NCBI GenBank assembly: GCA_038258095.1
Contig: JBBSQE010000001.1
Span: 1 to 54,733, forward strand
Direction of reading: 5' to 3'
Length of the DNA: 54,733 bases
DNA from: Solirubrobacterales bacterium
GTDB taxonomy: Bacteria > Actinomycetota > Thermoleophilia > Solirubrobacterales > 70-9
Position 1 is the stretch's first letter. Each line of letters starts with the position of its first letter. Of the stretch, positions 11,993-42,090 are shown piece after piece. The translations under genes were made by a program, and so were the position numbers. A model generated the notes under the pieces. It worked only from the letters and a program-made list of their open reading frames with translations, had not been told where the DNA came from and made no database searches.

Positions 11993-13039
11993 TCAGCCGC
12001 AGACCCAAGGACTTGACCCTGAGTCGGCGTAGATCAGCGCCGCGATGCGGTCCTGCTCGGCCTTCGAGGCATCCTGGGGCAGGCCCTGCCCGCCGTAGGC
12101 CTCCCAGGTCGAGGGAAGTATCTGGTAGGCGCCGCCGGCGCCGCTCGAGGGATTCACCGCGTGGTAGTTGCCGCCCGACTCACACATCACGATGTAGGTG
12201 GGGATCGAGTACGGACCGCCGAAGAATGCGTCAACCTCCTGCTGGGCGGAGGCCTCGTCCGCCGCGTCCGCCGCGGCCCGCTTCGCAGCCGCCGCCTTCG
12301 CCGCAGCGATGTCGTCGACCCAGCCGCCGATCGACGTTTGCAGGGTCGAGATCTGGTCGGCGCTCTCGGCGGAGACCGCTGCGAGGTTGGCCGCCTCGGC
12401 GTCGGCGTCGCCGCGGACCGTGGCGATCTCCGACCGGGCGCCCTCGAGCCGCGCGTTGTGGGCGCGGGCGCGGTCGCGCAGCTTCGTCGTCTGTGTGAGC
12501 GTCGCCTTCACCTGGTTGCCGACCTCCTCGACGCGGAAGGCCAGGGCGTTATCGGCGTCCTGGATCGCGGCCACATAGTCCGTGCGGGTGAGGAGGTCCT
12601 CGAAGTCCGACGAGCCGAGCGCCAAACTCGCCGCGTCGGGCTCGCCAGTCTTGTAGATCGCGACGAGACGGGCGGCCAGAGCATCGCGGGCGCGGGCAAG
12701 GCGGGCTCGCTCGCGCTTCAGGCGCCGCTCTGATGCCTCGACCTCGTCGCTCAGCTTCGCGGCACGCTCGCGGCCGCTGACGAGCAGGCCGCTCAGGCGT
12801 TTCTCCTTGGAGGCAGCAGCAGCAGCCCGGGCCTGCGTCTCGAACATCTGCGACTTGGTCGCCTGGATATCGGCGGCGAGACTCTGCGCCTGCGCCTTGG
12901 CGGCATCGACCTTCGTCTGTAGAGAGCCGACGCTCGCCCCCTGGGTGATCGCCGGGGCGAGAGTGCAGACGAAAGTAACCGCGAGTGCGGCTCCCAACTT
13001 GGTTCGCCGGGCTCTGGGGCTACTCGTGCTTGCGGGCAA
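11993..13039 (-). CDS. Secreted coiled-coil protein with C-terminal Rpf-like transglycosylase domain
   Basis: Signal-peptide-like N-terminus (RRTKLGAALAVTFVCTLAPAITQGAS). About 230 aa of Ala/Gln/Arg-rich coiled coil. C-terminus MCESGGNYHAVNPSSGAGGAYQILPSTWEAYGG matches the transglycosylase-like (Rpf) domain pattern. TTG start. Confidence 0.7.
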   Translation of the reverse strand: MPASTSSPRARRTKLGAALAVTFVCTLAPAITQGASVGSLQTKVDAAKAQAQSLAADIQATKSQMFETQARAAAAASKEKRLSGLLVSGRERAAKLSDEVEASERRLKRERARLARARDALAARLVAIYKTGEPDAASLALGSSDFEDLLTRTDYVAAIQDADNALAFRVEEVGNQVKATLTQTTKLRDRARAHNARLEGARSEIATVRGDADAEAANLAAVSAESADQISTLQTSIGGWVDDIAAAKAAAAKRAAADAADEASAQQEVDAFFGGPYSIPTYIVMCESGGNYHAVNPSSGAGGAYQILPSTWEAYGGQGLPQDASKAEQDRIAALIYADSGSSPWVCG

Positions 13040-18729: not shown

Positions 18730-19056
18730 CTACTCGGGCGTCAGCGTGAGACGGCGTAGCGCGAATCCAAGTGCCGTCAGAGCTACGGCGACCGCAAAGA
18801 GTGCGATGACATCGAGGCCGGTGAACGGCAGACCGCCGACGATGTTGTGCTCAAGGGGAGGTCTGTCGGCGGGCGGGGACTTCTCCTTCACGGACTGGGG
18901 GGTGTCGGAGCCGCCCGGACCTTGGCTGGCCTGGGTCACGGTATCGCCGTACTGCGCGGAAGTCGGCCCCGACTGTGCAAATGCGGAAACACTCAAGAGC
19001 AGGGTCAGAGCGATTGCCGCTGTCATGAGCCTGAGGTATCGATGAGGAGGAATCAC
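18730..19056 (-). CDS. Small secreted LPXTG-type (LPFTG) cell-wall-anchored protein
   Basis: Signal peptide MIPPHRYLRLMTAAIALTLLLSVSAFA-QS. Ser/Thr/Pro/Gly-rich ~55-aa mature part. C-terminal sorting signal: LPFTG, then hydrophobic LDVIALFAVAVALTALGFAL, then RR. GTG start at 19054-19056, alternative ATG at 19026. Confidence 0.7.
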   Translation of the reverse strand: MIPPHRYLRLMTAAIALTLLLSVSAFAQSGPTSAQYGDTVTQASQGPGGSDTPQSVKEKSPPADRPPLEHNIVGGLPFTGLDVIALFAVAVALTALGFALRRLTLTPE

Positions 19057-19095
19057 ATGCCCTGCATCGGCCGCTCCCGACGGGTACTTGAGCCA

Positions 19096-21084
19096 TCAGT
19101 TTCCAGTTGCAGGCCCGCGAGCACTCCGGAGCTGCGTCTCCAGGGCCGTGACTTCGTGACCGGTCGGGTTCAATTCACGCGCCTTGGCGAGCTCGATGCG
19201 GGCGGTAGCCGGCGCTTGATCGATGAGAGCCCGGGCCAGGTAGAGGTGGGGCGCGTATTCGTCGGGTGAACGCGCAATCGCCTGCCGGTACAGATCGATC
19301 GCTTCCCCGCGACGCCCGGACTGCTCTGCAATGACGCCTCCCACCAAGAGAGGCTCGGGGTCAAACGGATCGAACCGAGCGGCGAGCTCGAGATCGCTGA
19401 CCGCCTTGACAGGGTCTGTACCTCGCGCCCCGAGTGCCCTGCCGACCAGACGCTCCCCGATGAGAAGAACGCCGAAGGCGGCGATTGCCGCGACCCCGAT
19501 CCCGGCCAGCATCTTCCTCTTGGCCGGACCCCATCTCGCTGCGGGATCGAGGACTGCCGGAGCGGCCGCGGCGCCGAACAGATAAAGCGCGGGGCCGGCC
19601 AATCCCGGATAGTGCCAGAGCCAGTCGTATGAGCCCTGGACGAGCCATTCGGTTGCACCACCCAATGAGCCCGCACAGAGCGCTGCTGCGTTCGGGCCCA
19701 GACGGCGTGAGCGGCCAGCCGCCAGAAATGAGCCCCCTATGAGCGTCGCGAAGAGGAGCAGACCCGGGACTCCCAGCTCCGAGAGCATCAGAAGCTCGAT
19801 GCTGTGGGGGTCCCGAGGCGTCAGATCCGTATCGCGCTCGCGTAGGTATGTCACCTGAAAAGACCCGGTGCCCCCGCCGAGGAAAGGATGTTGAGCACCT
19901 TCCGATAAGGCGACCCGCCAAAGATCCGGCCGCTCAGTTCCGACGTTGAACCCGAATCGTGTCCGTTGGCCTTGAAAGTCGGGAGAATCGTCCTGCTTCA
20001 GCTCGGAAACCCGCTGATCGATGAAGCTGACCGGGCCCCCGTAACGGGAGAACACAGCGGCGCCTCCGACCACCACGATAATCGCCGTCGCCACAGCCAG
20101 TACCCGGGTGATCATCTGCACTCCGGAGCGACCGAGGCGGAGGCGCGATTCGACGGCCGTGATGAATCCTCCCGCCAGCACCAGCGATACGAGCGAGCTG
20201 AGCGCGACGGTGCGAGCAGCGTCGTGGATGAAGGGCAAGGCTCCCGCATCGGCCCGTCCATGCTGAAACACATCCAGCAGGGTGGGAGCGGCGGGCAAAA
20301 TCGGGAGGATGGCAAGCCCGAGGAACGTGACCACCCGGAGACGGCGCCGCGAGACGATCAGGACGACCGCGAGCGCGACGATGGCGGCCGGGAGAGAGCC
20401 CCGGCTCTGGGAGAGCAGAGCGAGCTCGAAGCTGAGTGTCGCGGACGCGAGAAAGCCTGCGCGCGCCAGCCAGTGAAACCGGCTCTCGGCAGCCAACACT
20501 ATGCAAGGCCAGGCTGTCATGAGAAAGAACGTGGCGTTCGCGTTGCGGTAACCGAGGGGAAAGCTGAGCGTTGCGTCCCTGCCGAGGACCGCCAGAGCCG
20601 AGTCGACGTTCCAGAGCTTTGAAACCGTGAAAAGCCCCACGAGGAGGCCGGCCAACCCAACCGGTAGGAGTGCAAGAAGCATCCTTCTGCCAAGGAGATT
20701 CGCTCCCCAGACGCCCAGAAAGAAGAGGACGCAATAGACCAAGACCTGTGCCGAATCCTCGAAGACGGCGCCGGGGGTGCTCGTCCAAAGGATCGAGGCA
20801 AGTGTCCAAGCAAGGAGCAGCCCCAGGGCGGCCATGGCCCACCCGGCCGGCCCTCCCAGTCGCACCCGAACCGGCGCTGAGAGGATGAGGACGATCCCAA
20901 CGGCCAGCGCACCGATCGCGCCGGGATAGAAGTCGGTTCCGAAATAGGCCCCTTGATGCCTGCCCCACCAGAGGAAGAGAACCGTTAGAGACCCTCCCAC
21001 GAGAGCAGCCGAGAGATTCGCAGCGCTGTCCGTCGGGACCCTTGACCGCACGCTCGCCACTGTAGCCAGCCCGTTCCCGGTCAT
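19096..21084 (-). CDS. Wzy_C (O-antigen ligase/polymerase-like) polytopic membrane protein fused to C-terminal TPR repeats
   Basis: Many TM segments. Wzy_C hallmarks LLSQSRGSL and RPDLWRVAL...PFLGGGTGSF...DPHSIELLMLSELGVPG. The last ~130 aa are TPR-like (AIDLYRQAIARSPDEYAPHLYLARALI...). The ORF extends to 21189, but that would overlap the divergent gene, so the ATG at 21082-21084 is preferred. Confidence 0.75.
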   Translation of the reverse strand: MTGNGLATVASVRSRVPTDSAANLSAALVGGSLTVLFLWWGRHQGAYFGTDFYPGAIGALAVGIVLILSAPVRVRLGGPAGWAMAALGLLLAWTLASILWTSTPGAVFEDSAQVLVYCVLFFLGVWGANLLGRRMLLALLPVGLAGLLVGLFTVSKLWNVDSALAVLGRDATLSFPLGYRNANATFFLMTAWPCIVLAAESRFHWLARAGFLASATLSFELALLSQSRGSLPAAIVALAVVLIVSRRRLRVVTFLGLAILPILPAAPTLLDVFQHGRADAGALPFIHDAARTVALSSLVSLVLAGGFITAVESRLRLGRSGVQMITRVLAVATAIIVVVGGAAVFSRYGGPVSFIDQRVSELKQDDSPDFQGQRTRFGFNVGTERPDLWRVALSEGAQHPFLGGGTGSFQVTYLRERDTDLTPRDPHSIELLMLSELGVPGLLLFATLIGGSFLAAGRSRRLGPNAAALCAGSLGGATEWLVQGSYDWLWHYPGLAGPALYLFGAAAAPAVLDPAARWGPAKRKMLAGIGVAAIAAFGVLLIGERLVGRALGARGTDPVKAVSDLELAARFDPFDPEPLLVGGVIAEQSGRRGEAIDLYRQAIARSPDEYAPHLYLARALIDQAPATARIELAKARELNPTGHEVTALETQLRSARGPATGN

Positions 21085-21175
21085 CGCGATTCGTCCGCCG
21101 GGGAGTTCGGGGGGACCCGCTGTCACTATAGGTGTCACAAGGACGCGCCGCCAGAGCGGCGAAGGATCACTCAGC

Positions 21176-22768
21176 GTGGAATCAGCCAACCAATTGACAG
21201 CAAACGAGGGCGACTGGCTCGAGCCTCCTGCCGAGCGACAGGGGCTGGCGCGCTACATCGAAACCATCCGCGAGCGATGGTGGCTGATCGCCCTCTGCGT
21301 CTTCCTCACCACCGCCGTGGCGGTCCTCTACGTCGCCACCGCGACGAAGCGCTATGAGGCCGAGGCCGACCTCCTGATCACCCCAGCCAGCAGCAACGAC
21401 ATCACCCTGACCAGCCTGGGACTCATTCGCGACTCCACCGATCCCAATCAGGCGGTTCAAACCGCGGCGAGACTGGTCACGAACGTCGAGGTCGCACAGA
21501 TCGCCAAGACCGCGTTGAACTCGCCCGACAGCCCCGAGACCCTGCTCGATCAGGTTACGGCCGTACCCGTTGCCCAGAGCAACATCGTGGCGATCACGGG
21601 CAACGCAACCAGTCCGACCGAAGCCCGCGATATAGCCAACGCTTTCGCTAATTCGATAGTGCAGGAACGGACCCAGGAGATGCATCGTCAGATCAACGCC
21701 AGGCTTCCTCCGCTCCAGGCCCAGTTGGCACAGGACCCCGCGCAGGCCGTCGGGCCGGACACACTCGGCTCCGTCATCACCGAACTTCAGACCCTGCAGC
21801 AGGCACCCGACCCGACCGTCCGGGTGCAGACCGTGGCCGTCTCGCCGAGCTCCCCAGCGTCTCCGAAGCCGGTGCTCAGCGTGATCGCCGGGCTCGTCGC
21901 CGGGCTCGCCCTGGGCATCGGAGCGGCCTTCGCGACACAGGGGCTCGACCCGAAACTGCGCCGCGAGACACAGCTTCGCCGGCTGTATCGACTTCCGATC
22001 CTGGCCCGCGTACCGCGAGAGAGCGGCGCCAACCATGGCTTGCCGCTGGATCCCCGCAACATGTCCCCGGTGACTTTGGAGGCCTACCGAACGTTGCGTG
22101 GCACGTTCGCCGCGGCACATGCACGCGATTCGACCGGTCGCGTGATCCTGGTCACCGGAGCCTCGCCGTCGGAGGGCAAGACGACCACCGCGGTCAATCT
22201 CGCGACATCTCTGGCGCTCTCCGGCAACCGGGTCATCCTGATCGAGGCCGACCTCCGCCGTCCATCGCTGGGTCAGCTGTTGGAAGCCGCGCCGAGTGTC
22301 GGGGGAGTCGTGAGCGTTCTGATCGAGAATATTGCTCTCGAAGATGCCCTCGTGACGACTCGCTACGGGCCCAACCTCCAGGTTCTGCTTGCGGACTACG
22401 AGGGCGGATGGATCGCAGAGCTCTTTTCCATCCCGGCGGCGACGGAGATGGTCAGCGAGGCCAGGAGGATGGCTGACTACGTGATCATCGATTCAGCCCC
22501 TCTGAACGAGGTCATCGATGCCATGCCCCTTGCCAGAGAGGCGGACGACATCTTGATGGTGGTTCGCCTGGGCCAGTCCCGCCTCGACAAGATCACCCAA
22601 CTCGGCGAGCTCCTCGCAGAGAACGGGGTCCGGCCCACCGGATTCGCCGTTGTCGGCACGCCGCGACCCAAGCGGGGCGAGTACCACTATTACGAGTCCC
22701 CCAACGACAACGGCGGCCGGCGCAAGCGCGGCCGGCGGTTGCTGAGCGGAACATCCAGCCGGGAATGA
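21176..22768 (+). CDS. Polysaccharide co-polymerase (Wzz domain) fused to BY-type tyrosine autokinase
   Basis: N-terminal TM plus chain-length-determinant region and a second TM. Walker A GASPSEGKTT, Walker A' ILIEADLRRP, Walker B VIIDSAP, C-terminal Tyr cluster EYHYYE. GTG start with GAAGGA 9 nt upstream. Confidence 0.85.
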   Translation: MESANQLTANEGDWLEPPAERQGLARYIETIRERWWLIALCVFLTTAVAVLYVATATKRYEAEADLLITPASSNDITLTSLGLIRDSTDPNQAVQTAARLVTNVEVAQIAKTALNSPDSPETLLDQVTAVPVAQSNIVAITGNATSPTEARDIANAFANSIVQERTQEMHRQINARLPPLQAQLAQDPAQAVGPDTLGSVITELQTLQQAPDPTVRVQTVAVSPSSPASPKPVLSVIAGLVAGLALGIGAAFATQGLDPKLRRETQLRRLYRLPILARVPRESGANHGLPLDPRNMSPVTLEAYRTLRGTFAAAHARDSTGRVILVTGASPSEGKTTTAVNLATSLALSGNRVILIEADLRRPSLGQLLEAAPSVGGVVSVLIENIALEDALVTTRYGPNLQVLLADYEGGWIAELFSIPAATEMVSEARRMADYVIIDSAPLNEVIDAMPLAREADDILMVVRLGQSRLDKITQLGELLAENGVRPTGFAVVGTPRPKRGEYHYYESPNDNGGRRKRGRRLLSGTSSRE

Positions 22769-22799: not shown

Positions 22800-24179
22800 A
22801 TGACCGCGACGCGCTTCGGTGGGCACGTCCTTTGGCCGGTGCCCGTCGCGGGCCTCTGTGGACTGATCGGACTCCTGGCCGGGTACCGACCCGCCTTCGC
22901 CATCGCCGCGGCACTTGGCCTGCTGTTCGTTCTGGTGATACTCACGGACCTCACGGCCGGCCTGACGGCGTTCGTCTTTCTGACCTTCATCGCCCTCGTT
23001 CCGATCGGGGCCGGCCCGGCGGTGAGTCTCCTGAAGGCCGCCGGACTGCTCTTGGCTTTCTCCTGGCTCTCGACCATCGTCAGGGATGGCAGCGAAGAGG
23101 CGGACTTCCTCCGCTCTTTCCCGGCCCTCGGCTATGCAGTGGCGTTCTTCATCGTCTGGACGGCACTGAGCCTTCTCTGGGCCCAGGATTCGGGCGTCGC
23201 ACTGACGGCCTTGTCCCGCTACGCGCTGAACGCCGTTCTATTCCTCATCGTCTTCACGGCCGTCCGCACGGAGCGCGATGTCATCTACGTGATGTGCGCC
23301 TTCGTCGCCGGATCGACGGTCTCCGCCCTCTACGGCTTGGCCCAACCTCCGGATCCGAATAGCCTCGACCGGTTGTCGGGCACCCTCGGAAACGCCAACG
23401 AGCTGGCAGCCGTACTGGTCGTCGGAAGCGTTCTCGGATTCGGTCTTGCCGCGATCACCCGACGCTCCCCCGGGCTTCGGTTGGCCGCTGCCAGCGGCGC
23501 CATGATCTGTGTGCTCGGCGTGATGCTCACCCTCTCCCGAACGGGCTTGGTGGCGATGGGCGTGGCCGGGCTCACCGCCGTCGTTGTCGGGGGCCGGTGG
23601 CGTCCTCAGATTGCGGTGATCGCACTCGTAGTAGCGCTCTTCGCGGCCGGGTACTTCTCTCTGGTCGCCTCACCGGCCGCCCGGGACCGGGTGTCACACC
23701 CCGATACCGGGACGGGCCGGGTTGATCTCTGGAAGATCGGAAAGCGGATGATCGCGGACAAGCCCGTGCTCGGCGTCGGGGTGGCCAATTTTCCCGTCAC
23801 CTCGGTGAACTACCTGCTCGAGCCGGGCACGATCGAGCGCACGGACTTCATTCTTGACACGCCGAAGGTGGCCCACAACACCTACCTGGAGATATTCGCC
23901 GAGCTCGGGGCCCCTGGATTCATCGCCTTCCTCGCGATCATCGGTGGGTGCATCGGATGCGCGTGGAAGGCGGCGAAGCGCTTCATGCTCGACGACAGAC
24001 TCAGGCTGGAAATACTCACCAGAACCCTGTTGGTCGCGCTCGCGGGTCTCTTCGCAGCAGATTTCTTCGAATCCGAGCAGGTCCAGAAGCCACTGTGGCT
24101 TCTGCTCGCCATGTGCCCGGCGTTGCTTGCAATCGCACGCTCCGGGCCCGGAGCGGACCAACAAGTGGACGCCGGCTGA
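22800..24179 (+). CDS. Wzy_C-domain membrane protein (putative glycan polymerase)
   Basis: 459 aa, about 10-12 hydrophobic segments. Contains LTLSRTGLV, GRVDLWKIG...PVLGVGVANF and VAHNTYLEIFAELGAPGF. Confidence 0.78.
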   Translation: MTATRFGGHVLWPVPVAGLCGLIGLLAGYRPAFAIAAALGLLFVLVILTDLTAGLTAFVFLTFIALVPIGAGPAVSLLKAAGLLLAFSWLSTIVRDGSEEADFLRSFPALGYAVAFFIVWTALSLLWAQDSGVALTALSRYALNAVLFLIVFTAVRTERDVIYVMCAFVAGSTVSALYGLAQPPDPNSLDRLSGTLGNANELAAVLVVGSVLGFGLAAITRRSPGLRLAAASGAMICVLGVMLTLSRTGLVAMGVAGLTAVVVGGRWRPQIAVIALVVALFAAGYFSLVASPAARDRVSHPDTGTGRVDLWKIGKRMIADKPVLGVGVANFPVTSVNYLLEPGTIERTDFILDTPKVAHNTYLEIFAELGAPGFIAFLAIIGGCIGCAWKAAKRFMLDDRLRLEILTRTLLVALAGLFAADFFESEQVQKPLWLLLAMCPALLAIARSGPGADQQVDAG

Positions 24180-24198: not shown

Positions 24199-26094
24199 AT
24201 GTGCGGGATAGCTGGTCAGGTCCGGGGCGATGGTCGACCCGTGGCCAGAGAGACGATCGAGAAGATGTGCTCCGCGATGCGGCATAGGGGCCCGGACTCG
24301 CGAGGGCTCCATCTCGACGGCCCGGCTTCGATCGCCATCCAGCGGCTGCGTGTGATCGACCTCGCGACCGGGGATCAGCCGATCTACAACGAGGACCGGA
24401 GCATCGCGGTCGTCCTCAATGGTGAGATCTACAACTTCCGGGAACTGCGCGAGAGGCTCACGCGGGCCGGGCACAAATTCCGCACCGAGGGCGATACCGA
24501 GGTGATCGTGCACCTATACGAGGATCTGGGTGACGCGTGCGTCAAGGAGCTGCACGGGATGTTCGCGTTCGCGCTCTGGGAGTCCAAGCGCGGGCGCCTG
24601 CTGCTTGCCAGGGACCGCGTCGGCAAGAAGCCTCTGCTCTACTCACAGCGGGGCGGCTGCCTCAGCTTCGCGTCGGAGATGAGTGCCCTGACCGCCGATC
24701 CCGAGGTGCCCCGTGATGTTGATCTGAATGCCGTCGACGCCTACCTGGGGGCAGGGTACGTCCCTCACCCGGATTCCATCTTTCGGGGAGTTCGCAAGCT
24801 CCCCCCCGGTTCCGTGCTGAGCTGGGAGGACGACAGAACGGAGGTCAACCGATACTGGCGGCTGAATTACGGAACGAAGCCGACGATCGGCTCTGCGCCC
24901 GAGGTTCACGAGGAGATACGGGAGCAGCTCACCCGAGCGGTCGAGCGCCGGATGATCGCGGATGTTCCCCTCGGCGCATTCCTGTCCGGAGGGATCGACT
25001 CCGGCGCGGTCGTGGCGGCAATGGCCCGCACGAGCGCGGCACCCGTGAAAACGTTCTCGATCGGCTTCGAGAACGCCGAGCACAGTGAGTTGCCGCGCGC
25101 CCGGCTGATCGCTGAGCGCTATGGAACCGACCACCACGAGTTCATCCTCAAACCGGACGCTTTACTGGTGTTGCCGTCGGTGGTGCGCCACTACGGTGAG
25201 CCCTTCGCCGACACCTCGGCGGTACCGAGCTTCTACGTGTCGAAGATCGCCGCCGAGCACGTGACCGTGGCGCTGAACGGGGACGGAGGAGATGAGAGCT
25301 TCGCCGGCTATCACCGATACCGGGCGCAGGCTCGAGCATCACGACTCGACTTCGTGCCGCGGCCCCTGCGGCGCCTTGCGGGAAGGGCGCTCCCCACGGC
25401 CGGAGGCGCGACGTCGATGCAACGTGCTCGGAGATTCGCCCAGCTCGTCGCCGCTAGCCCGGATAGGCGTCACGAGCAGCTGATGTCCGCGATTTCCTTC
25501 GAAACCAGAGCGGCTCTCTACTCCAACGATTTCCAGGCGGCCACAGGCCTACCTCGGCATGCGGAGGCGATCGAAGGCTCCTGGCGCGCGGCCACCGGGC
25601 CAGACCTCACGGGCCGGCTTCTGGAGGTCGACTTCAATACCTATCTCCCGGACGACCTGTGCGCGAAGATCGACATCGCCACGATGGCCCACTCGCTCGA
25701 GGCACGCTCCCCGTTCCTGGATCACGAGCTGCTGGAGTTCGCGGCGTCCCTGCCCTCGGAGATGAAGATGCACGGAGGGGAATCGAAGGTGGCCCTTCGA
25801 ATGGCGCTCCGGGACTGGCTTCCATCGGAGGTCCTGGACGGCCCCAAGCGGGGCTTTGGCATGCCGTCCGCGTCGGATTGGCTCCGAGGCGAACTGCGGC
25901 AACCCGTGACCGAGATCCTTCTCGATCCTGTGTCGCTCGGCCGTGGATACTTTTCGGAGGCCGCGCTCAGCGGTCTGCTGGCAGACCACGTGAGCAGGCG
26001 CCACGACCGCGGGCAGGAGCTCTGGACGTTGACCATGCTGGAGCTGTGGCACCGCGAGTTCGTGGACGGCGTCGCAGCCCCCGCATCGCTCTAG
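24199..26094 (+). CDS. asnB: Asparagine synthase (glutamine-hydrolysing)-family amidotransferase
   Basis: ORF trimmed to the ATG at 24199. N-terminal nucleophile MCGIAG and PP-loop FLSGGIDSGAV. 631 aa. Confidence 0.88.
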   Translation: MCGIAGQVRGDGRPVARETIEKMCSAMRHRGPDSRGLHLDGPASIAIQRLRVIDLATGDQPIYNEDRSIAVVLNGEIYNFRELRERLTRAGHKFRTEGDTEVIVHLYEDLGDACVKELHGMFAFALWESKRGRLLLARDRVGKKPLLYSQRGGCLSFASEMSALTADPEVPRDVDLNAVDAYLGAGYVPHPDSIFRGVRKLPPGSVLSWEDDRTEVNRYWRLNYGTKPTIGSAPEVHEEIREQLTRAVERRMIADVPLGAFLSGGIDSGAVVAAMARTSAAPVKTFSIGFENAEHSELPRARLIAERYGTDHHEFILKPDALLVLPSVVRHYGEPFADTSAVPSFYVSKIAAEHVTVALNGDGGDESFAGYHRYRAQARASRLDFVPRPLRRLAGRALPTAGGATSMQRARRFAQLVAASPDRRHEQLMSAISFETRAALYSNDFQAATGLPRHAEAIEGSWRAATGPDLTGRLLEVDFNTYLPDDLCAKIDIATMAHSLEARSPFLDHELLEFAASLPSEMKMHGGESKVALRMALRDWLPSEVLDGPKRGFGMPSASDWLRGELRQPVTEILLDPVSLGRGYFSEAALSGLLADHVSRRHDRGQELWTLTMLELWHREFVDGVAAPASL

Positions 26095-26096
26095 CT

Positions 26097-27446
26097 CTAG
26101 CGGGAGAGTCGGACCGAGACGGAGCGGGACTTGCCGATGCCCGGGGCGACGGCGCGGATCCTGACTCTGGAGGCACTCGAGGAAACGCGGAGCCGCGTAC
26201 GAAGCTTGAAGCCACCGCCTCGGCGGACGTGGGTGCTCCTCAGCCTGTGCCAGGACCCGTGCGCCAGCACCAGGAACTTGACCCGGCGGGGAGTCCTGCC
26301 GTTGCGCTTGTTGCGCCTGACCTTCCCGAAGAGAACCACCGGGGGGTTGTTCGTGACAGCGGCCTGTGCCTTCTGAAGGGTGATCGGCGTGGGGCTGGCA
26401 GCTTGGTCGGACAGGTCGCCGTTGAGAGCGCGCGCGCAGGGCCCGCCGGTGACCGTCAGGTCTCCCGCGGCTCGGTTCTTGAACTGAGGGGCAGCGATGA
26501 AGTTGCCATCCGTAGTGAAACCCTCGGCTCCCTCGCTGCGTGGGAGGACTCCCCCATCCTGGTCGTAGTAGCCACTGCTGGTGCCGTTGGAGCTGAAGAT
26601 GCAGTTCTCCCGAAAGATGTTCGAAGAGCCTACGACCGAGTTCGGCCAGCTCGCCTCGATGTTCCACCGGAGCTTCGAGTTGCTGATCACGTTGCCCCTG
26701 ATCACGTTTCCGGATGCGGCGGTGTTGCCGTCGCCGCCGATGGCAACGCCCTCGCCGTTGCCGTCGATGACGTTGCCGGTGACCACTGAGCCCCGAGCAT
26801 CGGGGTAGAGCTGGATTCCCCGGTCCGTGTTGTCGTAGATGAAGTTGTTCCGGATGATCGTGCCGTCGGCCTGCCCAACATAGATGCCGTGCTCCATGTT
26901 GTTCGAGGGCAGCTCGCCGCAGTCGTGAATCCGGCTGTCCTGGATGATCGTGTGGATGGCACGTCCGTAGTCGGCGTCACCGATCTTGAAGCAGATGTCG
27001 GTGTGGTAATTGGTCACGTCGAGGCCGGTGAAGACGACGTTGGCCGCGTTGGTGGTCGGGCTCGGAAGGTGGCGGGCGTTGCGGCCGTCGAGCATCAGGT
27101 CGGACATCGTGACCCCGTTGCCGGCCACCCAGATCCGCCCCTTGATCGTGGCCGTTTCCCCCGGGTAGCTCGTCACCGTCACCCCGGGAGTCGAGATCTT
27201 CAGCTCGGGCTGGCTGTAGGTCCCCGCGCGGAAGCAGCCCGTCTGACCACTGGGGAGGCGTTCGAGGAGAGCGTCGGCGGTGCGGAGCGGGGCCTCGGCG
27301 GAACCCTGCGCGCTGTCATTTCCACCCGGGGCGGCCACCACGTCGCAGATTGTCGAGGCACTTGCTCCGGCAGTCCCCAAGAGTGAAACGAGACCGACCG
27401 CGAGTGCGGTGACGATGCCTACGGTGATGGTGGAGTTCGTCTTCAT
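26097..27446 (-). CDS. Secreted right-handed parallel beta-helix protein (lyase/hydrolase/epimerase-like)
   Basis: Signal peptide MKTNSTITVGIVTALAVGLVSLLGTAGASA. Repeated N-x-I/V-x-G/N turns (IIRNNFIYDN, VVTGNVIDGN, NVIRGNVISN). Basic beta-rich C-terminal ~90 aa. Confidence 0.7.
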   Translation of the reverse strand: MKTNSTITVGIVTALAVGLVSLLGTAGASASTICDVVAAPGGNDSAQGSAEAPLRTADALLERLPSGQTGCFRAGTYSQPELKISTPGVTVTSYPGETATIKGRIWVAGNGVTMSDLMLDGRNARHLPSPTTNAANVVFTGLDVTNYHTDICFKIGDADYGRAIHTIIQDSRIHDCGELPSNNMEHGIYVGQADGTIIRNNFIYDNTDRGIQLYPDARGSVVTGNVIDGNGEGVAIGGDGNTAASGNVIRGNVISNSKLRWNIEASWPNSVVGSSNIFRENCIFSSNGTSSGYYDQDGGVLPRSEGAEGFTTDGNFIAAPQFKNRAAGDLTVTGGPCARALNGDLSDQAASPTPITLQKAQAAVTNNPPVVLFGKVRRNKRNGRTPRRVKFLVLAHGSWHRLRSTHVRRGGGFKLRTRLRVSSSASRVRIRAVAPGIGKSRSVSVRLSR

Positions 27447-27534
27447 CTACGAACCACGGATCGACCGCGAGAAGCACGTCCCCGCAAACTTTGTCCCAAC
27501 CTGGACTTATGTTGGGGCCCCGCCCCTGGTCACC

Positions 27535-28671
27535 TCAGGATCGGTTCTCAAGAGCCCGGACGGCGTCGGCCCAGTGATCGCCGACAGCGTCCGGGCCGTG
27601 CTCCTCCAGGACGTAACGACGGCCGTTGTGGCCCATCTGGCGTCGCGCGGAGGGGTCGCCCCAGATCTGCCGGGCTCCGCGCACGAAGTCGTCGAAATCG
27701 CCGTTCGCCGCCACGCCACATCTGCGGGCACCCACGACACCATCGGGGTCGAACCCGAACGTGACCACAGGCCTACCCCGCATCCATGCTTCGAGAAAGA
27801 CGTTCGGCATGCCCTCGAACTCCGACGTCAGGACGACGGCGGCCGACCGATCGATCAGGTCCATCAGTTCGCCCCGAGGCCTCGGCTGAAGCAACTCGAC
27901 GTTCTCCAACTCCCCCGCCTCGGTGTCCACCGCGGCGCTGAGCGCCGGCGGCGTTTCGCTCGTCTCCACTCCGATCATCCAGAACTTCGCCTCGGGCATC
28001 TGTCGGGCGAGCTCGAGGAACTTCAGGGGTCGCTTGTAGTCCACGAGCCGGCCGACCCAGAGAAATGCCTCACCGTCTCGCTCGGAGACCTCGGCCGGCT
28101 CGGCGAAGCTTCGTATGACCGAGACATCGCGCCCGGGAAAGTTCGCGAGCGCCACGCGGCGCTGCTGGTCCGTCTGGGTCACGATCAGGTTGGCGCTTCC
28201 GATCGCCCTCCCGTAGGCGAGGGCACCCAGGCGACTCGCGTTTCTTCGTGCGGGCATGAAGTCGATGTCGTTGGAGCCAGACATCAGAACCGCCCGCTTG
28301 CGCAGACGGGCGAAGATCGCACCGACGATCAGTTGCAACCCGTAGCCGCGCAATATGTACACATCCGCGTCGGCCTCAGCCATGGCGCGCCAGATCTCGC
28401 GTCCTTCCCGAAGCTTCGACAGGGACCCCCCGTGTCCGGCGTAGGCGCCGCGTTGCACGATGTCAAGTCCGTCGAACGTCTCGACCGGGTCGGAGACCGG
28501 GTAGGAGATATGAGCGACGCTCAGGCCCCGTCCGGCCAACCCGGCCGCCAGTTGGGTCGTCTGGAACTCTGCGCCCCCACCTCCCTTGTCGGGTGTGACG
28601 CGAGCGTTGTCGTAGAAAGCGTTGGCCGACGGCGCATAGATCGCCGCGTCGCGCTCAGTCTGGGTGCGCAT
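27535..28671 (-). CDS. Glycosyltransferase family 4
   Basis: ORF trimmed to the ATG at 28669-28671 (MRTQTERD...). GT-B layout with EX7E motif (EGMPNVFLE). Overlaps the upstream stop by 17 nt. Confidence 0.8.
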   Translation of the reverse strand: MRTQTERDAAIYAPSANAFYDNARVTPDKGGGGAEFQTTQLAAGLAGRGLSVAHISYPVSDPVETFDGLDIVQRGAYAGHGGSLSKLREGREIWRAMAEADADVYILRGYGLQLIVGAIFARLRKRAVLMSGSNDIDFMPARRNASRLGALAYGRAIGSANLIVTQTDQQRRVALANFPGRDVSVIRSFAEPAEVSERDGEAFLWVGRLVDYKRPLKFLELARQMPEAKFWMIGVETSETPPALSAAVDTEAGELENVELLQPRPRGELMDLIDRSAAVVLTSEFEGMPNVFLEAWMRGRPVVTFGFDPDGVVGARRCGVAANGDFDDFVRGARQIWGDPSARRQMGHNGRRYVLEEHGPDAVGDHWADAVRALENRS

Positions 28672-29605
28672 CGAGCTGACGGCGTATGCCCTCGGTGAGA
28701 CTGACGGCAGGCGAGTACCCGAGGTCAGCGCGCGCCCGACTCGTATCGGCGCCCGTCTTCCTCGCGTCGCCGGGCACGGCATCCCTGTGCTCGCGCCGGA
28801 TCTCTCGCCCGATCAGGTCCTCGAGGATCTCCAGAACGTCGAGCACCGTTGCCTCCGTCCCTCCTGCAACGTTGTAGACGGCGCCCGGATGCCCGCGCTC
28901 TGCGGCGGCGAGCGTGGCGGCCACGCAGTCCGACACATAGGTGAAGTCCCGGACCTGCTCGCCATCCCCGTAAACCGAGATCGATTTGTCCTCCGCGGAG
29001 GCCTCGATGAATCGGCAGAACGCCATGTCGGGACGTTGCCGAGGACCGAAGATCGTGAAGTACCGCAGGGCGACGGTGGGTACCTCGAAGGCCGCTTGGT
29101 AGAGCATGGCGAGATGCTCGGCCGCGAGCTTCGTGACGCCGTAGGGCGACACCGGCCGCGGCAGGTCGCGTTCCCCCGTGGGGTAGCTCTCGGCATTGCC
29201 ATAGACGGATGACGATGACGCGATGACGAACTTCCGAAGGGACGCACCCTTGGCGGCTTCGAGCAGCCGCTGAGTGGCTTGGACGTTCTCTCGGGTGTAG
29301 ACGTCGAACTGCTCGCCCCAGCTGGCTCGGACGCCGGGCTGTCCCGCGAGGTGGAACACGACCTCGACGTCCCCCATGAGTGACCCGAGGTCTGCTTCCA
29401 CGAGGTTCTCTTCGATCAGCTCGAAAGACCCGTTGCTCACCAGCAGGTCCGCGTTGCGCCGCTTGCGGCTGACGTCGTAGTAGTCCGTGAAGCAGTCGAT
29501 GCCGACGACCTCGTGTCCGCCGGCCAACAGCTCTTCGCTCAGGTGGGATCCGATGAACCCGGCTGCCCCGGTGACCATCACTCGCATGTGGCGCACTCCT
29601 GTCAT
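28655..29605 (-). CDS. NAD-dependent epimerase/dehydratase (extended SDR; UDP-sugar 4-epimerase or UXS-like)
   Basis: VTGAAGFIGSHL Rossmann motif and catalytic YGVTK. The start at 29605 forms an ATGA overlap with the upstream stop. Alternative ATG at 29587 (MRVMVTG). Confidence 0.82.
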   Translation of the reverse strand: MTGVRHMRVMVTGAAGFIGSHLSEELLAGGHEVVGIDCFTDYYDVSRKRRNADLLVSNGSFELIEENLVEADLGSLMGDVEVVFHLAGQPGVRASWGEQFDVYTRENVQATQRLLEAAKGASLRKFVIASSSSVYGNAESYPTGERDLPRPVSPYGVTKLAAEHLAMLYQAAFEVPTVALRYFTIFGPRQRPDMAFCRFIEASAEDKSISVYGDGEQVRDFTYVSDCVAATLAAAERGHPGAVYNVAGGTEATVLDVLEILEDLIGREIRREHRDAVPGDARKTGADTSRARADLGYSPAVSLTEGIRRQLDAHPD

Positions 29606-30738
29606 GGGCGGATTCCTTCCGGGAGGACTCGTCGCATCGTTTGCTCGTAATCGTCGAACAGCCTCTGGGTGGAGACGTCGAGGTCGAGGTTGGCACCGAT
29701 CCAGGCTCGGGCCTCTGCGCATTGCGCGCGCACCAGCGCGGGGTCACGCTCGACCATCTCGCGTAGGGCTGCGGCCAGCCCCGGGCCGGTGCGAGGCGCG
29801 ATCACGCACGCGTCGAGCTCGTCCGCGAGGTAACGGTGGCCGGGCAGGTCGCTGGCCACCACCGGCATGCCGCTCACGAGCGCCTCGATCACAGCGAAGG
29901 GCATTCCCTCGCCACGGCTCGGTGCGACGAACAGGTCCGCGGCGCCGAACATCTCACGGACATCGGGGATGGGGCCGACGACCGCGGCGTTTCGTTCCAG
30001 TCCGAGGCGCGCCACGTTCTCCCGTCCTTCGTCCCCCGCCTGATTGAGCAGCGCGAAGAAATTCATGCCGTCGCCCACTAGTTCGTCCATTGCTTCGAGG
30101 AGGATGTCTCCCCCCTTCAACAACCAGTCCCTGCCGAACATCAGAACGGCGCGGGACCCCTCGGGAACGCCGAGCGCCGCCCTACGGGCTGCCCGGTCTT
30201 CCTCCCGGGGCTCCGGAAAGAGGTCCAGGCTGATCGGGCTTGGGAACACCGAGATCCGCTCCGAGCGACCGAAGCGCTTCACGAGGCCGTCCGCGATGTT
30301 CGAGGACGGGCAGAGGATCCGGTCGACGCTGCGCGCCACCAGAGACATCTTGATGGCGTTCGAGGCGATCGTGATCGGGGAGTCCGAAAGAACGGTGTGG
30401 ATGTGCCAATACAGGACCGCGTGTTCTTTCCGGCGCACCGCAAGTGCGGTCGGCGTGTCGAAGGTCGTGAAATGGGCATGAAGGATCGTCGGCTCCTGGT
30501 CATCCGCCAGCATCGCCCGGACCTGGCGCGTCAGGCTGATCGGAGATCCCGAGACGAAGCTCACGGGAATTCCCTCGTCCTCGAACATGCTCATCCAGGT
30601 CCTGCCACGCGCCGCCTCGGGGAACACAGCCTCGGCCTTCCAACCCCGCGAGATGGCCTCGCTCAGGACACTTCTCAGAAAAGGCAGATAGGACCCGCCG
30701 TGTTCAGGGGTGTACTCGGTCAGGTGAATGAGCCTCAT
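29602..30738 (-). CDS. Glycosyltransferase family 4
   Basis: 378 aa with EX7E motif (EGMPFAVIE). ATGA overlap with the upstream gene. Confidence 0.8.
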   Translation of the reverse strand: MRLIHLTEYTPEHGGSYLPFLRSVLSEAISRGWKAEAVFPEAARGRTWMSMFEDEGIPVSFVSGSPISLTRQVRAMLADDQEPTILHAHFTTFDTPTALAVRRKEHAVLYWHIHTVLSDSPITIASNAIKMSLVARSVDRILCPSSNIADGLVKRFGRSERISVFPSPISLDLFPEPREEDRAARRAALGVPEGSRAVLMFGRDWLLKGGDILLEAMDELVGDGMNFFALLNQAGDEGRENVARLGLERNAAVVGPIPDVREMFGAADLFVAPSRGEGMPFAVIEALVSGMPVVASDLPGHRYLADELDACVIAPRTGPGLAAALREMVERDPALVRAQCAEARAWIGANLDLDVSTQRLFDDYEQTMRRVLPEGIRP

Positions 30739-31940
30739 GCGTTCACTCTCTCGAACATGGCCACCAGCCGGTCGGCGGAACGGGCGATGTCGAATTCGGC
30801 CTCGATGAGTTCGCGTCCCTTCACCAGGTCGATCTCATCGGCTGCATCGAGAGCTCGCTGAAGGGCTGTTTGAAGGCTCCCAGCATCGCCCGGTGTCGCC
30901 AGCAGACCGGTCTCGCCGTCGACAATGAGCTCGGGGATCCCGGACATACGTGAGGCGATTGTGACCAATCCGCATGCCATTGCCTCCATCAGAGCAACCG
31001 GAATGCCCTCCATGTCGCCGTTGGGAAGAACGACGCTGGGTAGCACGAACAGGTCAGACGCAGCCAATGCATCGGCCACGACCGGCTCGGTCAGAGCTCC
31101 CAGAAACGTGATCCGGTCGTCCAGCCCGAGACTGGCTGCCTCGCGCTCCAGCTCTTCTCGCAGGGGTCCGTCCCCCGCCAAGCTGACCTCGATACGACCG
31201 ATGGCCCCCGCCCCCTCCGCCAAGGCGGCAAGAAGGACCTCGTGCCCCTTCGACTCCCGGAGGGCCCCGACGCAGAGCGCACGCACCGGCCCGCTCGAAG
31301 CCGGGCGGCGCGGAGCGAACGGGTAGCGCGCCGGCTCGACGCCGCAATGCACGACCTCTATCGGCGTCTCGGATGCCCGGCACTTCTCCTGGATGAAGCG
31401 GCGGTTGTGCTCAGAGATGGCCACCACGAAGCTCGCATCATCCACCTTCTCCTCCAGCATCCACTGATGGATGAAGATGTCATGGGCGTGTGCGGTGAAG
31501 CTGTAGCTGACACCGGCGAGGCGGCCACAGATCCACGCGCAGAGAGCTGGATACGTCGCGAAATGGGCATGAACATGGTCTATCCCGAGCTCGGAGACGG
31601 TTCTCGCGTGCCGGGCGGCCAGAGGGACGACCGCCAGGGAACGGATCGCGACGGACGGGCGGCGGGCGTTGCTCGTGAGAATGGTCAGCAGGATGCCGAT
31701 CAGGGCGGTCGGACGGTGCACGACCCACCACCGCAGGGCGCTGATGGAATCGACTCCGCCGGGCCGTCGCAGACGGTCGATCCACGGGGCAGCTTCGGGG
31801 TGCACCGTGGAGTCGGTGGCGCGAAAGAGCGAGAGGAGCTCGACCGGCTCCGGCATCAAGTCGGCGACCGCGTTCAGCTCGCGAAGCACGAAGGTCTCGG
31901 ACGCCGCCGGGAATCGCGAGACGCAGTAGGCAACCTTCAT
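30735..31940 (-). CDS. Glycosyltransferase family 4
   Basis: ORF 30735..33074 trimmed to the ATG at 31938-31940 (MKVAYCVSRFP...), which forms an ATGA overlap with the upstream stop. EX7E motif EGIPVALME. Confidence 0.8.
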   Translation of the reverse strand: MKVAYCVSRFPAASETFVLRELNAVADLMPEPVELLSLFRATDSTVHPEAAPWIDRLRRPGGVDSISALRWWVVHRPTALIGILLTILTSNARRPSVAIRSLAVVPLAARHARTVSELGIDHVHAHFATYPALCAWICGRLAGVSYSFTAHAHDIFIHQWMLEEKVDDASFVVAISEHNRRFIQEKCRASETPIEVVHCGVEPARYPFAPRRPASSGPVRALCVGALRESKGHEVLLAALAEGAGAIGRIEVSLAGDGPLREELEREAASLGLDDRITFLGALTEPVVADALAASDLFVLPSVVLPNGDMEGIPVALMEAMACGLVTIASRMSGIPELIVDGETGLLATPGDAGSLQTALQRALDAADEIDLVKGRELIEAEFDIARSADRLVAMFERVNA

Positions 31941-33781: not shown

Positions 33782-33789
33782 CGGGAATC

Positions 33790-34542
33790 TCAGGAGGAAC
33801 CGACTATGAGCGAAGCTTCGTGGCGCTTGAAGATCAGCCGAAGCGGCATGGGCAGGCGGATGCCGTCGAGCCATGATTGCTCGATCGAACCACCTTCGCC
33901 GATGACCATGGCGTTGAGCTCATCCGGAGAGTAGTAGGAGACGACGGGCTGGCCCACGTTCGCCCAATAGCCCAGAACGCCGACCCTTCTGCTCGTGACG
34001 CGGCTCACGGTCCGCTTCAACCAGAAGACGGAATCCATGGCGAGACGTGGTCTGAAGACGGGCTCGACGATGATCAGGTGACCCTCCGGCTTCAGGAGCA
34101 TCAGCGAGTTCCCGATCGCCTCGCGGGCGTTGGCGCGTGATTCCCGCCGCGTGGAACCCACGAGGTGGTGCAAGACTGCGGCGACGACGACGAAGTCATA
34201 GCCACCGGCCAGTCCGGCGATGAAATCGCGGTCGAGAACAGAGCCGTGGAGGGTGTCACACTCGACGCGCTCTCGAGTCTTCACCAAGCAGCTCTCGCTC
34301 ACGTCCATCGCAGACAGACGCGTCATGTCGGCGGATCGCGAGATGAAATCGAGGGTGTTCCCGACGCCGCAACCGACGTCGATCAGGGTCGAGTCCGGCC
34401 GGGCGGATGTCGCCAGGAACTCAGCGACCCGGTCGAGTCGACCATCGCTGTACTCGGGAACGTGCGAGTCGAAGTAGCGAACCGTTTCGGCGTCACTCTG
34501 AGGCGGTATCACCACCTGCTTCTCAGCTTCAGGACCGGTCAT
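33790..34542 (-). CDS. Class I SAM-dependent methyltransferase
   Basis: Motif I LIDVGCGVGNTL, motif II SAMDVS and post-I acidic residues. 250 aa. Confidence 0.78.
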   Translation of the reverse strand: MTGPEAEKQVVIPPQSDAETVRYFDSHVPEYSDGRLDRVAEFLATSARPDSTLIDVGCGVGNTLDFISRSADMTRLSAMDVSESCLVKTRERVECDTLHGSVLDRDFIAGLAGGYDFVVVAAVLHHLVGSTRRESRANAREAIGNSLMLLKPEGHLIIVEPVFRPRLAMDSVFWLKRTVSRVTSRRVGVLGYWANVGQPVVSYYSPDELNAMVIGEGGSIEQSWLDGIRLPMPLRLIFKRHEASLIVGSS

Positions 34543-34560
34543 GTCTTCTCGTCGATTGTC

Positions 34561-38082: not shown

Positions 38083-38129
38083 GGGGACTCACCGCCGGCA
38101 AGACGAGTGTGCATCCCGGTGCGGCCTCA

Positions 38130-38846
38130 TCACTGGATGAGATCTGGGCCGAATCGGCTGGCATTCTCGGTGAGAAAGGTGACTGCGCGGTCGTATTCCG
38201 CTGGGGTACCGATATCGAACCAGGCACCCTCGAAGGGATATGCGCCGACCGGCCGACCGGCCGCGATCAGCCTCAAGACCACGTCGGGGAAGTCGAACCG
38301 CCCGTCGGGTATCGCCTCAACGGCGACCGGTGAGTAGACATAGACGCCCATGCTGACTTCGTAGTGGAGGGTGGGCTTCTCGACGTAGCCGGTGACGATC
38401 TCGCCCGATCCCTCGATGACCCCCAGCGAGAGCCCGACGTCTTTGCGGTGCGTGGCGATCGTCAGGGCGACCCCACGCTCCTCGTGCCGGGCAATCAGGG
38501 CTGCGTAGTCAAGGTCCGTGAGGATGTCCCCGTTCATGACGAGGACGGATTCCTCGACCTTCGGGATCTGGCGAAGGGCGCCAGCCGTGCCGAGCGGCTC
38601 GGACTCCCAGTGGTAGCGGAGCTCGACCCCATCGGGGACGACATCGCTTTCGTCGAAGTACGCACGAATAAGCCCACCGAGATGCCCGACGGAGACGTCG
38701 ATCTCCGTAAAGCCGGCGGTGGCCAGTTGCTGGAGGATCAACGCGAGGATCGGCCGGTCTCCGAGCGGGAGCAGGGGCTTCGGTAGCACCGTCGTGTACG
38801 GACGCAGTCGCGTCCCCTTTCCTCCGGCGAGGATCACCGCGCGCAT
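38130..38846 (-). CDS. Sugar-1-phosphate nucleotidyltransferase
   Basis: N-terminal ILAGGKGTRLRPYT...PKPLLP signature and central GTAGAL. 238 aa. Sugar and nucleotide specificity cannot be read from the sequence. Confidence 0.82.
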   Translation of the reverse strand: MRAVILAGGKGTRLRPYTTVLPKPLLPLGDRPILALILQQLATAGFTEIDVSVGHLGGLIRAYFDESDVVPDGVELRYHWESEPLGTAGALRQIPKVEESVLVMNGDILTDLDYAALIARHEERGVALTIATHRKDVGLSLGVIEGSGEIVTGYVEKPTLHYEVSMGVYVYSPVAVEAIPDGRFDFPDVVLRLIAAGRPVGAYPFEGAWFDIGTPAEYDRAVTFLTENASRFGPDLIQ

Positions 38847-42088: not shown

Positions 42089-42090
42089 CG

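Follow-up and report, generated by a model that had tools for sequence, protein, structure and literature searches.

All O-oligosaccharyltransferases (O-OTases) characterized so far have a Wzy_C domain and depend on its conserved His, and in the TfpM and PglS systems the OTase genes adjoin dedicated acceptor genes as a rule (PMC9829042). In the current analysis, we examined a gene pair of comparable layout in a 54,733-bp contig of a Solirubrobacterales bacterium (JBBSQE010000001.1; about 67% GC), the entire length of which is referred to as the window. The upstream gene encodes a polytopic Wzy_C protein with C-terminal tetratricopeptide repeats (TPRs), hereafter the Wzy_C-TPR enzyme, and the downstream gene encodes a small secreted protein with an LPFTG sorting motif. 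An earlier reading of the window, the original prediction, had suggested that the enzyme could transfer the glycan of an adjacent Wzx/Wzy cluster onto the small protein, which a sortase would then fix to peptidoglycan. Drawing on family profiles, structure prediction, and comparison across related genomes, we propose that the two genes form part of a module for glycan attachment that is conserved in the class Thermoleophilia.

Among described systems, WsfB of Paenibacillus alvei offers several points of likeness. A review reports Wzy_C with a C-terminal TPR for both WsfB and PglL, and WsfB, like the enzyme examined here, belongs to a monoderm host and to a polysaccharide-type locus making a polymer linked to undecaprenyl pyrophosphate (PMC2943079). 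The P. alvei locus also shares an AsnB homolog (wsfA) with the window, and in the related WsaB/WsaA system of Geobacillus stearothermophilus, the TPRs reside in a protein of their own, encoded by an adjacent gene (PMC2943079). The WsfB system performs Tyr O-glycosylation (PMC2943079), and the small protein of the window has an invariant Tyr. The likeness is drawn from described architecture and spans a Bacillota host and Thermoleophilia. The acceptors also differ: WsfB acts on a large S-layer protein that self-assembles and is retained by SLH domains, whereas the candidate acceptor here is a mature peptide of about 50 residues that would be fixed by sortase.

The pilin O-OTases (TfpO/PilO, PglS–ComP, and TfpM) resemble the window in that a Wzy_C enzyme with the His is encoded next to one small dedicated acceptor. 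PglS, which has a catalytic His and a large periplasmic C-terminal domain in its AlphaFold model (PMC12800693), can transfer long polysaccharides, as can TfpM (PMC9829042; PMC12800693). The ComP sequon is disulfide-flanked (PMC9829042), resembling a Cys-flanked motif in a subset of the small-protein family described below. Unlike the present module, these systems occur in Gram-negative hosts, act on type IV pilins, follow the gene order acceptor then OTase, and involve no sortase; further, the accessory Pfam domains of PglL-type enzymes were undetected in the enzyme studied here.

A glycosylated LPXTG protein is likewise on record, which overturns the view of the original prediction that a glycan-carrier route of this kind was undescribed: LcpA glycosylates the actinobacterial protein GspA of Actinomyces oris, which is anchored to the wall (PMC6381275). 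The GspA route, likened here by description, differs in relying on an LCP (LytR_cpsA_psr) phosphotransferase rather than a Wzy_C enzyme, and no LCP match was found in the window. PEP-CTERM/exosortase systems of Gram-negative exopolysaccharide loci offer an analogy only, as they too place C-terminal sorting-signal proteins and a sorting enzyme in such loci, with another signal (PEP-CTERM) and another enzyme (exosortase) (PMC1569441). The glycosylation side of this parallel comes only from the name of a Wzy_C-family model, TIGR03097 ('putative O-glycosylation ligase, exosortase A system-associated'), as PMC1569441 (Haft et al. 2006) does not discuss PEP-CTERM glycosylation; neither a PEP-CTERM signal nor an exosortase was seen in our survey. 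Monoderm Wzy_C-TPR O-OTases, OTase–acceptor gene pairs, and a glycosylated LPXTG protein are therefore all known already. Their combination, namely a WaaL-like TPR enzyme, an LPXTG mini-acceptor, and a linked sortase in a Wzy-dependent locus across Thermoleophilia, was not found in the literature searched.

Anatomy of the Wzy_C-TPR enzyme and the small LPFTG protein

All close homologs of the window genes belonged to Thermoleophilia, either to Solirubrobacterales or to other members of this class of Actinomycetota, whose cultured representatives are Gram-positive. The gene for the enzyme (Table 1) is read from an ATG at 21084, a start favored by the alignment of homologs as well as by the gene call in the database, giving 662 residues; the same open reading frame (ORF) opened at a TTG at 21189 (19096..21189, minus strand) would yield 697. 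The protein matched PF04932 (Wzy_C) with an E-value of 3.3e-12 and 46.9 bits, above the gathering cutoff of 31.7, and more than 180 homologs of 600–770 residues were present in the database. In a set of 30 homologs used for the family profile, conserved columns, and loop charges, R385, D387, and H427 of the Wzy_C loop (662-residue numbering) were invariant, as was R228. The family profile recovered the WaaL structure 7tpg_B (E 2.8e-9), and this was also the best membrane match of the AlphaFold model in Foldseek (E 2.3e-6, probability 1.00; global template-modeling (TM) scores low, 0.22/0.34). The enzyme is thus a member of the Wzy_C/O-antigen-ligase superfamily (PF04932), with a WaaL-like GT-C fold. 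With WaaL, it appears to share an extracytoplasmic catalytic loop bearing conserved Arg and His residues. It differs in an added helix and a TPR domain predicted to face outward, and the lipid A-core acceptor of WaaL is lacking in a monoderm. A match to TIGR03097 (E 1.1e-10) scored 41 bits against a cutoff of 188.1, which excludes the enzyme from the exosortase-associated ligases.

Recognition of the C-terminal TPRs depended on the family profile. With the single sequence, all Pfam TPR matches stayed below their gathering scores (TPR_19 E 1.5e-4), and a PDB search gave TPR matches that were only marginal. In contrast, the 30-homolog profile matched consensus TPR proteins over its positions 551–646, with each stretch reaching about 1e-7 to 1e-8. 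The AlphaFold model (predicted local distance difference test (pLDDT) 89; predicted TM score (pTM) 0.90) placed six C-terminal helices at residues 558–654, and this six-helix domain superposed on the three-TPR peptide-binding domains of CTPR3, CHIP, and SGT with TM scores of 0.75–0.83, and on that of RPAP3 at about 0.8. As the profile, the six modeled helices, and TM scores of about 0.8 agree, we accept three C-terminal TPRs.

To orient the protein in the membrane, we took helix boundaries from the AlphaFold model and averaged loop charges over the 30 homologs under the positive-inside rule. All loops assigned to the inside were net positive (+0.5 to +2.8), while the short outside loops were neutral or negative, with the exception of one short loop containing an invariant Arg (QSRGS). 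The large loop bearing the invariant Arg, Asp, and His is predicted to fall outside; it is net negative and has positively charged loops on both sides. The C-terminus of WaaL is cytoplasmic. The paralog without TPRs ends where WaaL does, and in the enzyme the WaaL-like core is followed by a single additional membrane helix, on account of which the TPR domain is predicted to face outward and to be extracytoplasmic.

The small gene starts 39 nt after the stop codon of the enzyme gene, downstream and on the same strand, and no terminator-like or promoter-like sites were present in the gap. A gene caller had placed its start at an ATG at 19026, giving 98 residues (P0186); we favor the upstream GTG, which gives 108 residues, because it retains an n-region Arg that is invariant in the family. 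By inspection, the signal peptide comprises this Arg and a hydrophobic core, with likely cleavage between AFA and Q. The mature part from this site to LPFTG is 48 residues long, 50% of which are Ser, Thr, Pro, or Gly. Downstream of LPFTG, 20 hydrophobic residues are followed by RR (18733-18816). Judged by its sequence pattern, which is invariant in the family, the small protein carries a complete LPXTG cell-wall sorting signal.

Taken together, these results bear out the anatomy in the original prediction: both ORFs, the LPFTG motif, the hydrophobic segment, and the RR are present, the Wzy_C domain exceeds its gathering cutoff, and the 'about three TPRs' are upheld by homolog profile, modeled helices, and superposition. 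Minor corrections were needed, including the length of the mature region, which had been put at about 55 residues. The orientation of the TPRs, on which that reading had hinged, came out on the side it required, as predicted from the charge pattern of the homologs.

Across the small-protein family, a signal peptide precedes a mature part with a 'PTxxQY' motif at its N-terminus, followed by a variable linker rich in Gly and Ser (median 31 residues), an invariant LPFTG, and a conserved anchor. In the motif, Tyr36 is invariant and the Gln near-invariant, while family members can have Ser, Val, or Ala in place of the neighboring Thr. For a sorting signal, the C-terminal membrane segment shows unusual conservation, with G97, L100, and R101 invariant or nearly so. 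The family profile recovered at least 1652 database proteins, all named 'hypothetical' and without a Pfam domain, and Pfam and NCBIfam scans of the small protein itself returned nothing significant even at E ≤ 1. GC content at third codon positions did not discriminate between the small ORF (0.72) and an overlapping opposite-strand ORF (0.71). Family conservation nevertheless rules out both that the small ORF is a chance ORF and that the opposite-strand ORF is a real gene.

Two further features of the family were observed. In one subfamily (L009, L012, L018, L020-L022, L037, L039, L055, and L059), a pair of Cys brackets the Tyr motif (C-x4-7-PTxxQY-C), an arrangement that suggests a disulfide-closed loop presenting the motif. 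In six loci (L043, L046, L054, L077, L088, and L089), two paralogous small LPFTG genes lie one on each side of a phosphoglycosyltransferase gene. These pairs are found at about 8.0–10.4 kb in locus coordinates in L043, L046, L054, and L077, while in L088 and L089, a sortase gene comes directly afterward, resulting in a compact five-gene block.

Gene linkage across Thermoleophilia

To survey the gene neighborhoods, we assembled 80 loci from species-representative genomes, retrieved with the Wzy_C-TPR enzyme alone (11-sequence alignment A2), and searched their 6-kb flanks in all six frames for C-terminal sorting signals. The sample is drawn from one class, is dominated by metagenome-assembled genomes (MAGs), and represents a lineage that is almost wholly uncultured. 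A small LPFTG gene was present within the flanks in 58 of the 80 loci, including a frameshifted copy in L031; a further frameshifted copy, in L064, falls outside this count. In 26 loci, it immediately follows the enzyme gene in the same orientation. A gene for a Bac_transf phosphoglycosyltransferase is present in 42 loci, in 35 of which the small gene immediately precedes it, often with gaps of 4–50 nt. The two genes stay paired across rearrangements, being found behind the enzyme gene on the same strand, inverted and convergent on it, or displaced by 3–5 kb. Reciprocal look-ups beginning with the small protein (n = 5) retrieved a Wzy_C protein of 636–682 residues within 2.5 kb in all five cases, with the transferase next door, and a sortase within 2–9 kb in four.

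The association extends well beyond close relatives. In Gaiellaceae, an enzyme only 29% identical to that of the window is followed by an 87-residue protein with the sequence 'ALPFTGLD', in line with the expectation of the original prediction that the gene pair would be conserved in relatives, where we found it to be widespread. In Paraconexibacter and allied MAGs, the gene between those of the enzyme and the transferase encodes a secreted Gly/Ser-rich protein of 180–200 residues with an N-terminal 'LLSGYGGPG' motif, a C-terminal membrane anchor, and a degenerate LPFTG. The module order thus recurs at about 30% enzyme identity in both groups. As the distant relatives keep a Tyr motif and an anchor while their LPFTG is degenerate, we regard sortase anchoring as a lineage-specific addition rather than part of the module core.

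The pairing of the enzyme gene with the small gene is not a product of chance. Housekeeping and other genes in these loci (argG, dnaE, and the gene for an Rpf-like enzyme) are syntenic as well, and part of the adjacency is therefore inherited gene order. Inherited order alone is disfavored, because the linkage to the transferase survives rearrangement and the pairing persists at about 30% identity.

A sortase of 229 residues is encoded 3.4 kb from the small gene (PF04203 E 4.9e-29); both it and an Rpf-like enzyme, which the original prediction had listed, are confirmed. Class E was its best class, with a match to NF033747 at E 1.8e-37 and 129.3 bits, short of the cutoff of 160, and we refer to it as class E-like. 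LAXTG is the usual preference of class E sortases, among which the housekeeping enzyme SrtA of Actinomyces oris anchors GspA. Orthologs were present in 31 of the 80 loci, and in eight of these the gene is directly upstream of the enzyme gene, co-oriented and abutting. A search of the window and loci for the canonical catalytic motif TLxTC retrieved nothing, and the sortase was recognized instead through the Pfam labels of neighboring genes; the motif search missed it because the catalytic Cys region reads 'LVLSACNP' in the window and 'LVLTACHP' in relatives.

The sortase gene is divergent from argG, and the two are neighbors in relatives too. The arginine genes of the window fall into two groups on the minus strand, argG at 13275 to about 14600 and argD/B/J/C at 40036-44246, which are separated by the sortase gene, the small-protein block, and a glycan cluster of about 19 kb.

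A candidate glycan relay and the alternatives

From this anatomy, predicted topology, and conserved linkage, we infer every biochemical step of the following scheme, including glycosylation of the small protein and its cleavage by sortase. The Wzx/Wzy/Wzz-kinase cluster would build a glycan on undecaprenyl pyrophosphate, which the TPR-less Wzy_C paralog probably polymerizes. The extra membrane helix of the WaaL/PglL-type enzyme would put its peptide-binding-type, three-repeat TPR domain outside the cell, where it may hold the small secreted protein while the C-terminal sorting signal still tethers that protein to the membrane. The loop bearing the invariant His and Arg would then catalyze en bloc transfer of the glycan to the small protein. 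The likeliest acceptor would be the invariant Tyr of 'PTxxQY', with the Ser/Thr of the flexible Gly/Ser-rich linker as alternatives; we prefer the Tyr to the neighboring Thr because the former is invariant and the latter variable, and because Tyr O-glycosylation is known with WsfB. Finally, the class E-like sortase would cut between the Thr and Gly of LPFTG and join the glycopeptide to peptidoglycan, leaving the small protein as a wall-anchored polysaccharide stalk. We put forward this reading, with the Wzy_C-TPR protein as an O-OTase, the small protein as its dedicated mini-acceptor, and the sortase as the enzyme that then fixes the acceptor to the wall, tentatively and at slightly below an even chance.

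Several observations weigh against it. The sortase scores below the class E cutoff, and the sorting motif here is invariably LPFTG rather than LAXTG. Distant relatives are without an intact LPXTG, and about 20 of the 80 loci are without a small gene within 6 kb, including all eight in which the sortase gene abuts the enzyme gene; a search of these roughly 20 loci for an alternative sorting motif yielded nothing convincing. Both Wzy_C paralogs keep the His motif, for which reason sequence does not assign one as polymerase and the other as ligase. The PglL-specific Pfam domains PglL_A and Wzy_C_2 were not detected in the enzyme at E ≤ 0.01, which places it outside the proteobacterial PglL/PglS subfamilies. 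The synteny of argG, dnaE, and the Rpf-like gene dilutes the significance of the adjacency, the steadiest neighbor of the small gene is the phosphoglycosyltransferase rather than the enzyme, and a priming phosphoglycosyltransferase is absent from the window (tblastn). The support, moreover, is comparative-genomic throughout.

The alternative that survives best, though we consider it on the unlikely side, is that the Wzy_C-TPR protein acts as the Wzy polymerase, or as a ligase whose acceptor is not a protein (a lipid anchor or peptidoglycan, for example), with a TPR domain that touches the Wzz/kinase co-polymerase or the wall and a small protein that is a co-conserved, unglycosylated accessory, for instance a wall-anchored spacer or scaffold. 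Wzy_C is common to polymerases, ligases, and OTases, and the two paralogs, beside which the window offers no other candidate for polymerase or ligase, are 27% identical and share the R-x-DLW and His motifs (BLASTP). This alternative also accommodates the divergent, syntenic pairing of the enzyme gene with the Wzz/kinase gene in 46 of the 80 loci, the loci without a nearby small gene, and the undetected PglL-specific domains. However, the TPR-less paralog, which was found as originally predicted and is present next door in 39 of the 80 loci, could serve as the polymerase, and an outward, peptide-binding-type TPR domain beside a secreted peptide better suits a protein acceptor. Wzy_C with TPRs is, in the literature searched, reported for the O-OTases WsfB and PglL (PMC2943079).

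The steadiness of the transferase as a neighbor raises a different alternative, in which the chief partner of the small protein is the priming phosphoglycosyltransferase and not the Wzy_C-TPR enzyme, the small protein serving either as a tethered regulator or partner of initiation or through a post-cleavage membrane remnant that acts on the transferase. The 35 of 42 loci with the small gene directly upstream, the joint movement of the pair on block inversion, the unusually conserved membrane segment (G97, L100, and R101), and the retention of the order small gene then transferase in distant lineages without LPFTG would all fit such a role. Yet the window and about 18 close relatives keep the small gene beside the enzyme gene with no transferase in reach. 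The active site of phosphoglycosyltransferases is cytoplasmic, whereas the small protein lies almost wholly outside the membrane, and co-transcription with a priming enzyme is equally expected of an acceptor in the same pathway. We rate this alternative as improbable.

Somewhat more improbable still is that the small protein is glycosylated and wall-anchored by way of an enzyme encoded elsewhere, an LCP protein or a PMT-type mannosyltransferase, while the Wzy_C-TPR protein does something else. A precedent exists in another actinobacterium, where LcpA glycosylates the LPXTG protein GspA (PMC6381275), and the visible portion of the genome amounts to 54.7 kb. Against this, Pfam scans of about 50 window ORFs and of the Pfam-labeled neighborhoods of eight relatives found no PMT gene, apart from a weak PMT_2 match near the module in one distant relative (L086), and no LCP match in either set, the window scan covering a 54.7-kb contig and not the whole genome; in addition, it is the Wzy_C-TPR gene that consistently accompanies the small gene. 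The original prediction had gone further, suggesting that the enzyme replaces an LCP-type ligase. The absence of LCP genes from the window holds, but one contig of this length says nothing about the rest of the genome.

The weakest alternative, coincidental synteny, would make the small protein an ordinary sortase substrate in a conserved, slowly rearranging neighborhood; it is the least probable of all given the rearrangements, since, for all that the relatives fall in one class, the sample is MAG-dominated, and argG, dnaE, and the Rpf-like gene are syntenic, the small gene stays beside the enzyme or transferase gene through at least five arrangements (among them inversion, 3–5 kb displacement, and duplication) and does so down to about 30% enzyme identity, where housekeeping synteny is gone.

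The O-OTase and mini-acceptor reading stands as a well-supported hypothesis rather than a finding, reached by comparative genomics in an almost wholly uncultured lineage. Relative to the original prediction, the predicted outward topology and the conserved linkage support its interpretation in part, while the tightest link of the small gene proved to be with a transferase that the window does not contain. The proposal that sortase fixes the carrier fares similarly: a sortase is near and abuts the enzyme gene in eight relatives, but LPFTG is degenerate in distant ones.

The surrounding locus and implications

The features of the window discussed here are compiled in Table 1. Upstream of the enzyme gene lie the divergent Wzz/kinase gene, the TPR-less paralog, and the remainder of a Wzx/Wzy-type cluster.

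Table 1. Coordinates of the module and of associated features within the window (forward-strand numbering)
Feature	Coordinates	Strand	Remarks
Rpf-like transglycosylase	11993..13039		Pfam scan
Class E-like sortase, 229 residues	14634..15323	+	PF04203 E 4.9e-29; divergent from argG; 3.4 kb from the small gene
Small secreted LPFTG protein, 108 residues	18730..19056	-	GTG start; candidate glycan acceptor and sortase substrate
LPFTG sorting motif	18817..18831	-	Invariant in alignment A3
Gln35-Tyr36 of the 'PTxxQY' motif, mature N-terminus	18949..18954	-	Alignment A3; alignment of 61 members
Wzy_C-TPR enzyme, 662 residues	19096..21084	-	ATG at 21084; WaaL/O-OTase-superfamily polytopic membrane protein
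C-terminal three-repeat TPR domain, residues 558-654	19123..19413	-	Profile, AlphaFold model, superposition; predicted extracytoplasmic
Wzy_C domain and large extracytoplasmic loop	19747..20199	-	Pfam stretch 331-481 (697-residue numbering)
Wzz fused to BY-type tyrosine kinase	21176..22768	+	PF02706, AAA_31; TIGR01007 E 1.4e-28; divergent from enzyme gene
TPR-less Wzy_C paralog, 459 residues, candidate polymerase	22800..24179	+	PF04932 E 2.5e-21
Rest of the Wzx/Wzy-type cluster	24199..39889	mixed	AsnB homolog, beta-helix protein, family 4 glycosyltransferases, epimerases, methyltransferases, nucleotidyltransferase (Pfam)
Wzx flippase	35394-36968	-	Pfam scan

Within the glycan cluster, the AsnB homolog (24199-26094) directly follows the TPR-less paralog; its presence both here and in P. 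alvei hints, by analogy, at a shared glycan-modification step such as amidation. The cluster also contains a secreted, lipoprotein-like protein of 645 residues (31937-33874, minus strand) with an 'LPGC' lipobox and no Pfam match. Beside it, an apparent family 4 glycosyltransferase ORF of 779 residues has its true start near 31.9 kb.

Two Pro-rich proteins are encoded between the sortase and small-protein genes. The first, of 381 residues (15804-16949, minus strand), combines an N-terminal coiled coil with a conserved C-terminal motif, 'IPE.AVLRATQMAVAG..R.EIE..L..EF'. It belongs to no Pfam or NCBIfam family and is present in 25 of the 80 loci, with counterparts at L067:5234-5905 and L070:5333-6142; in some loci, its homologs stand between the sortase and Wzy_C-TPR genes. 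The second, a membrane-anchored protein of 217 residues (18048-18701, plus strand), is convergent with the small LPFTG gene across a 28-nt gap, is found in 12 of the 80 loci, and has a weak match, below cutoff, to a type VII secretion-associated Rv3446c domain (E 2.9e-5).

At the far end of the window, four sugar-modification genes stand between infC (53696-54388, minus strand) and the rpmI (about 48973-49170) and rplT (48610-48969) genes, an unusual interruption of an operon that is normally contiguous. The intervening genes encode a FemAB-like GNAT protein (49155-50276), two DegT-type aminotransferases (50276-52596), and a UDP-GlcNAc 2-epimerase (52373-53695, plus strand).

If the proposed relay is correct, it would represent a third mode of polysaccharide attachment in monoderms, beside LCP ligation to peptidoglycan and S-layer O-glycosylation, and would join the WaaL/PglL-type transferase and sortase machineries through one tiny carrier protein. 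A broader and more doubtful extension, which we consider less likely than not, is that Thermoleophilia fix their Wzy-dependent polysaccharide mainly by a relay from the OTase to the Tyr of a carrier of about 50 residues and on to the sortase, and not by LCP proteins, the carrier thereby acting as a minimal bacterial 'proteoglycan core'. Were the relay to hold, the carrier would contain a natural and very short Tyr-type O-glycosylation sequon with its cognate enzyme, and glycoengineers would gain a compact natural acceptor peptide, possibly Tyr-linked, together with a matched transferase. For the lineage itself, the relay would provide a role for an unannotated family of at least 1652 members, as well as for the widespread 'O-antigen ligase family' genes of Gram-positive soil bacteria that have no O-antigen.

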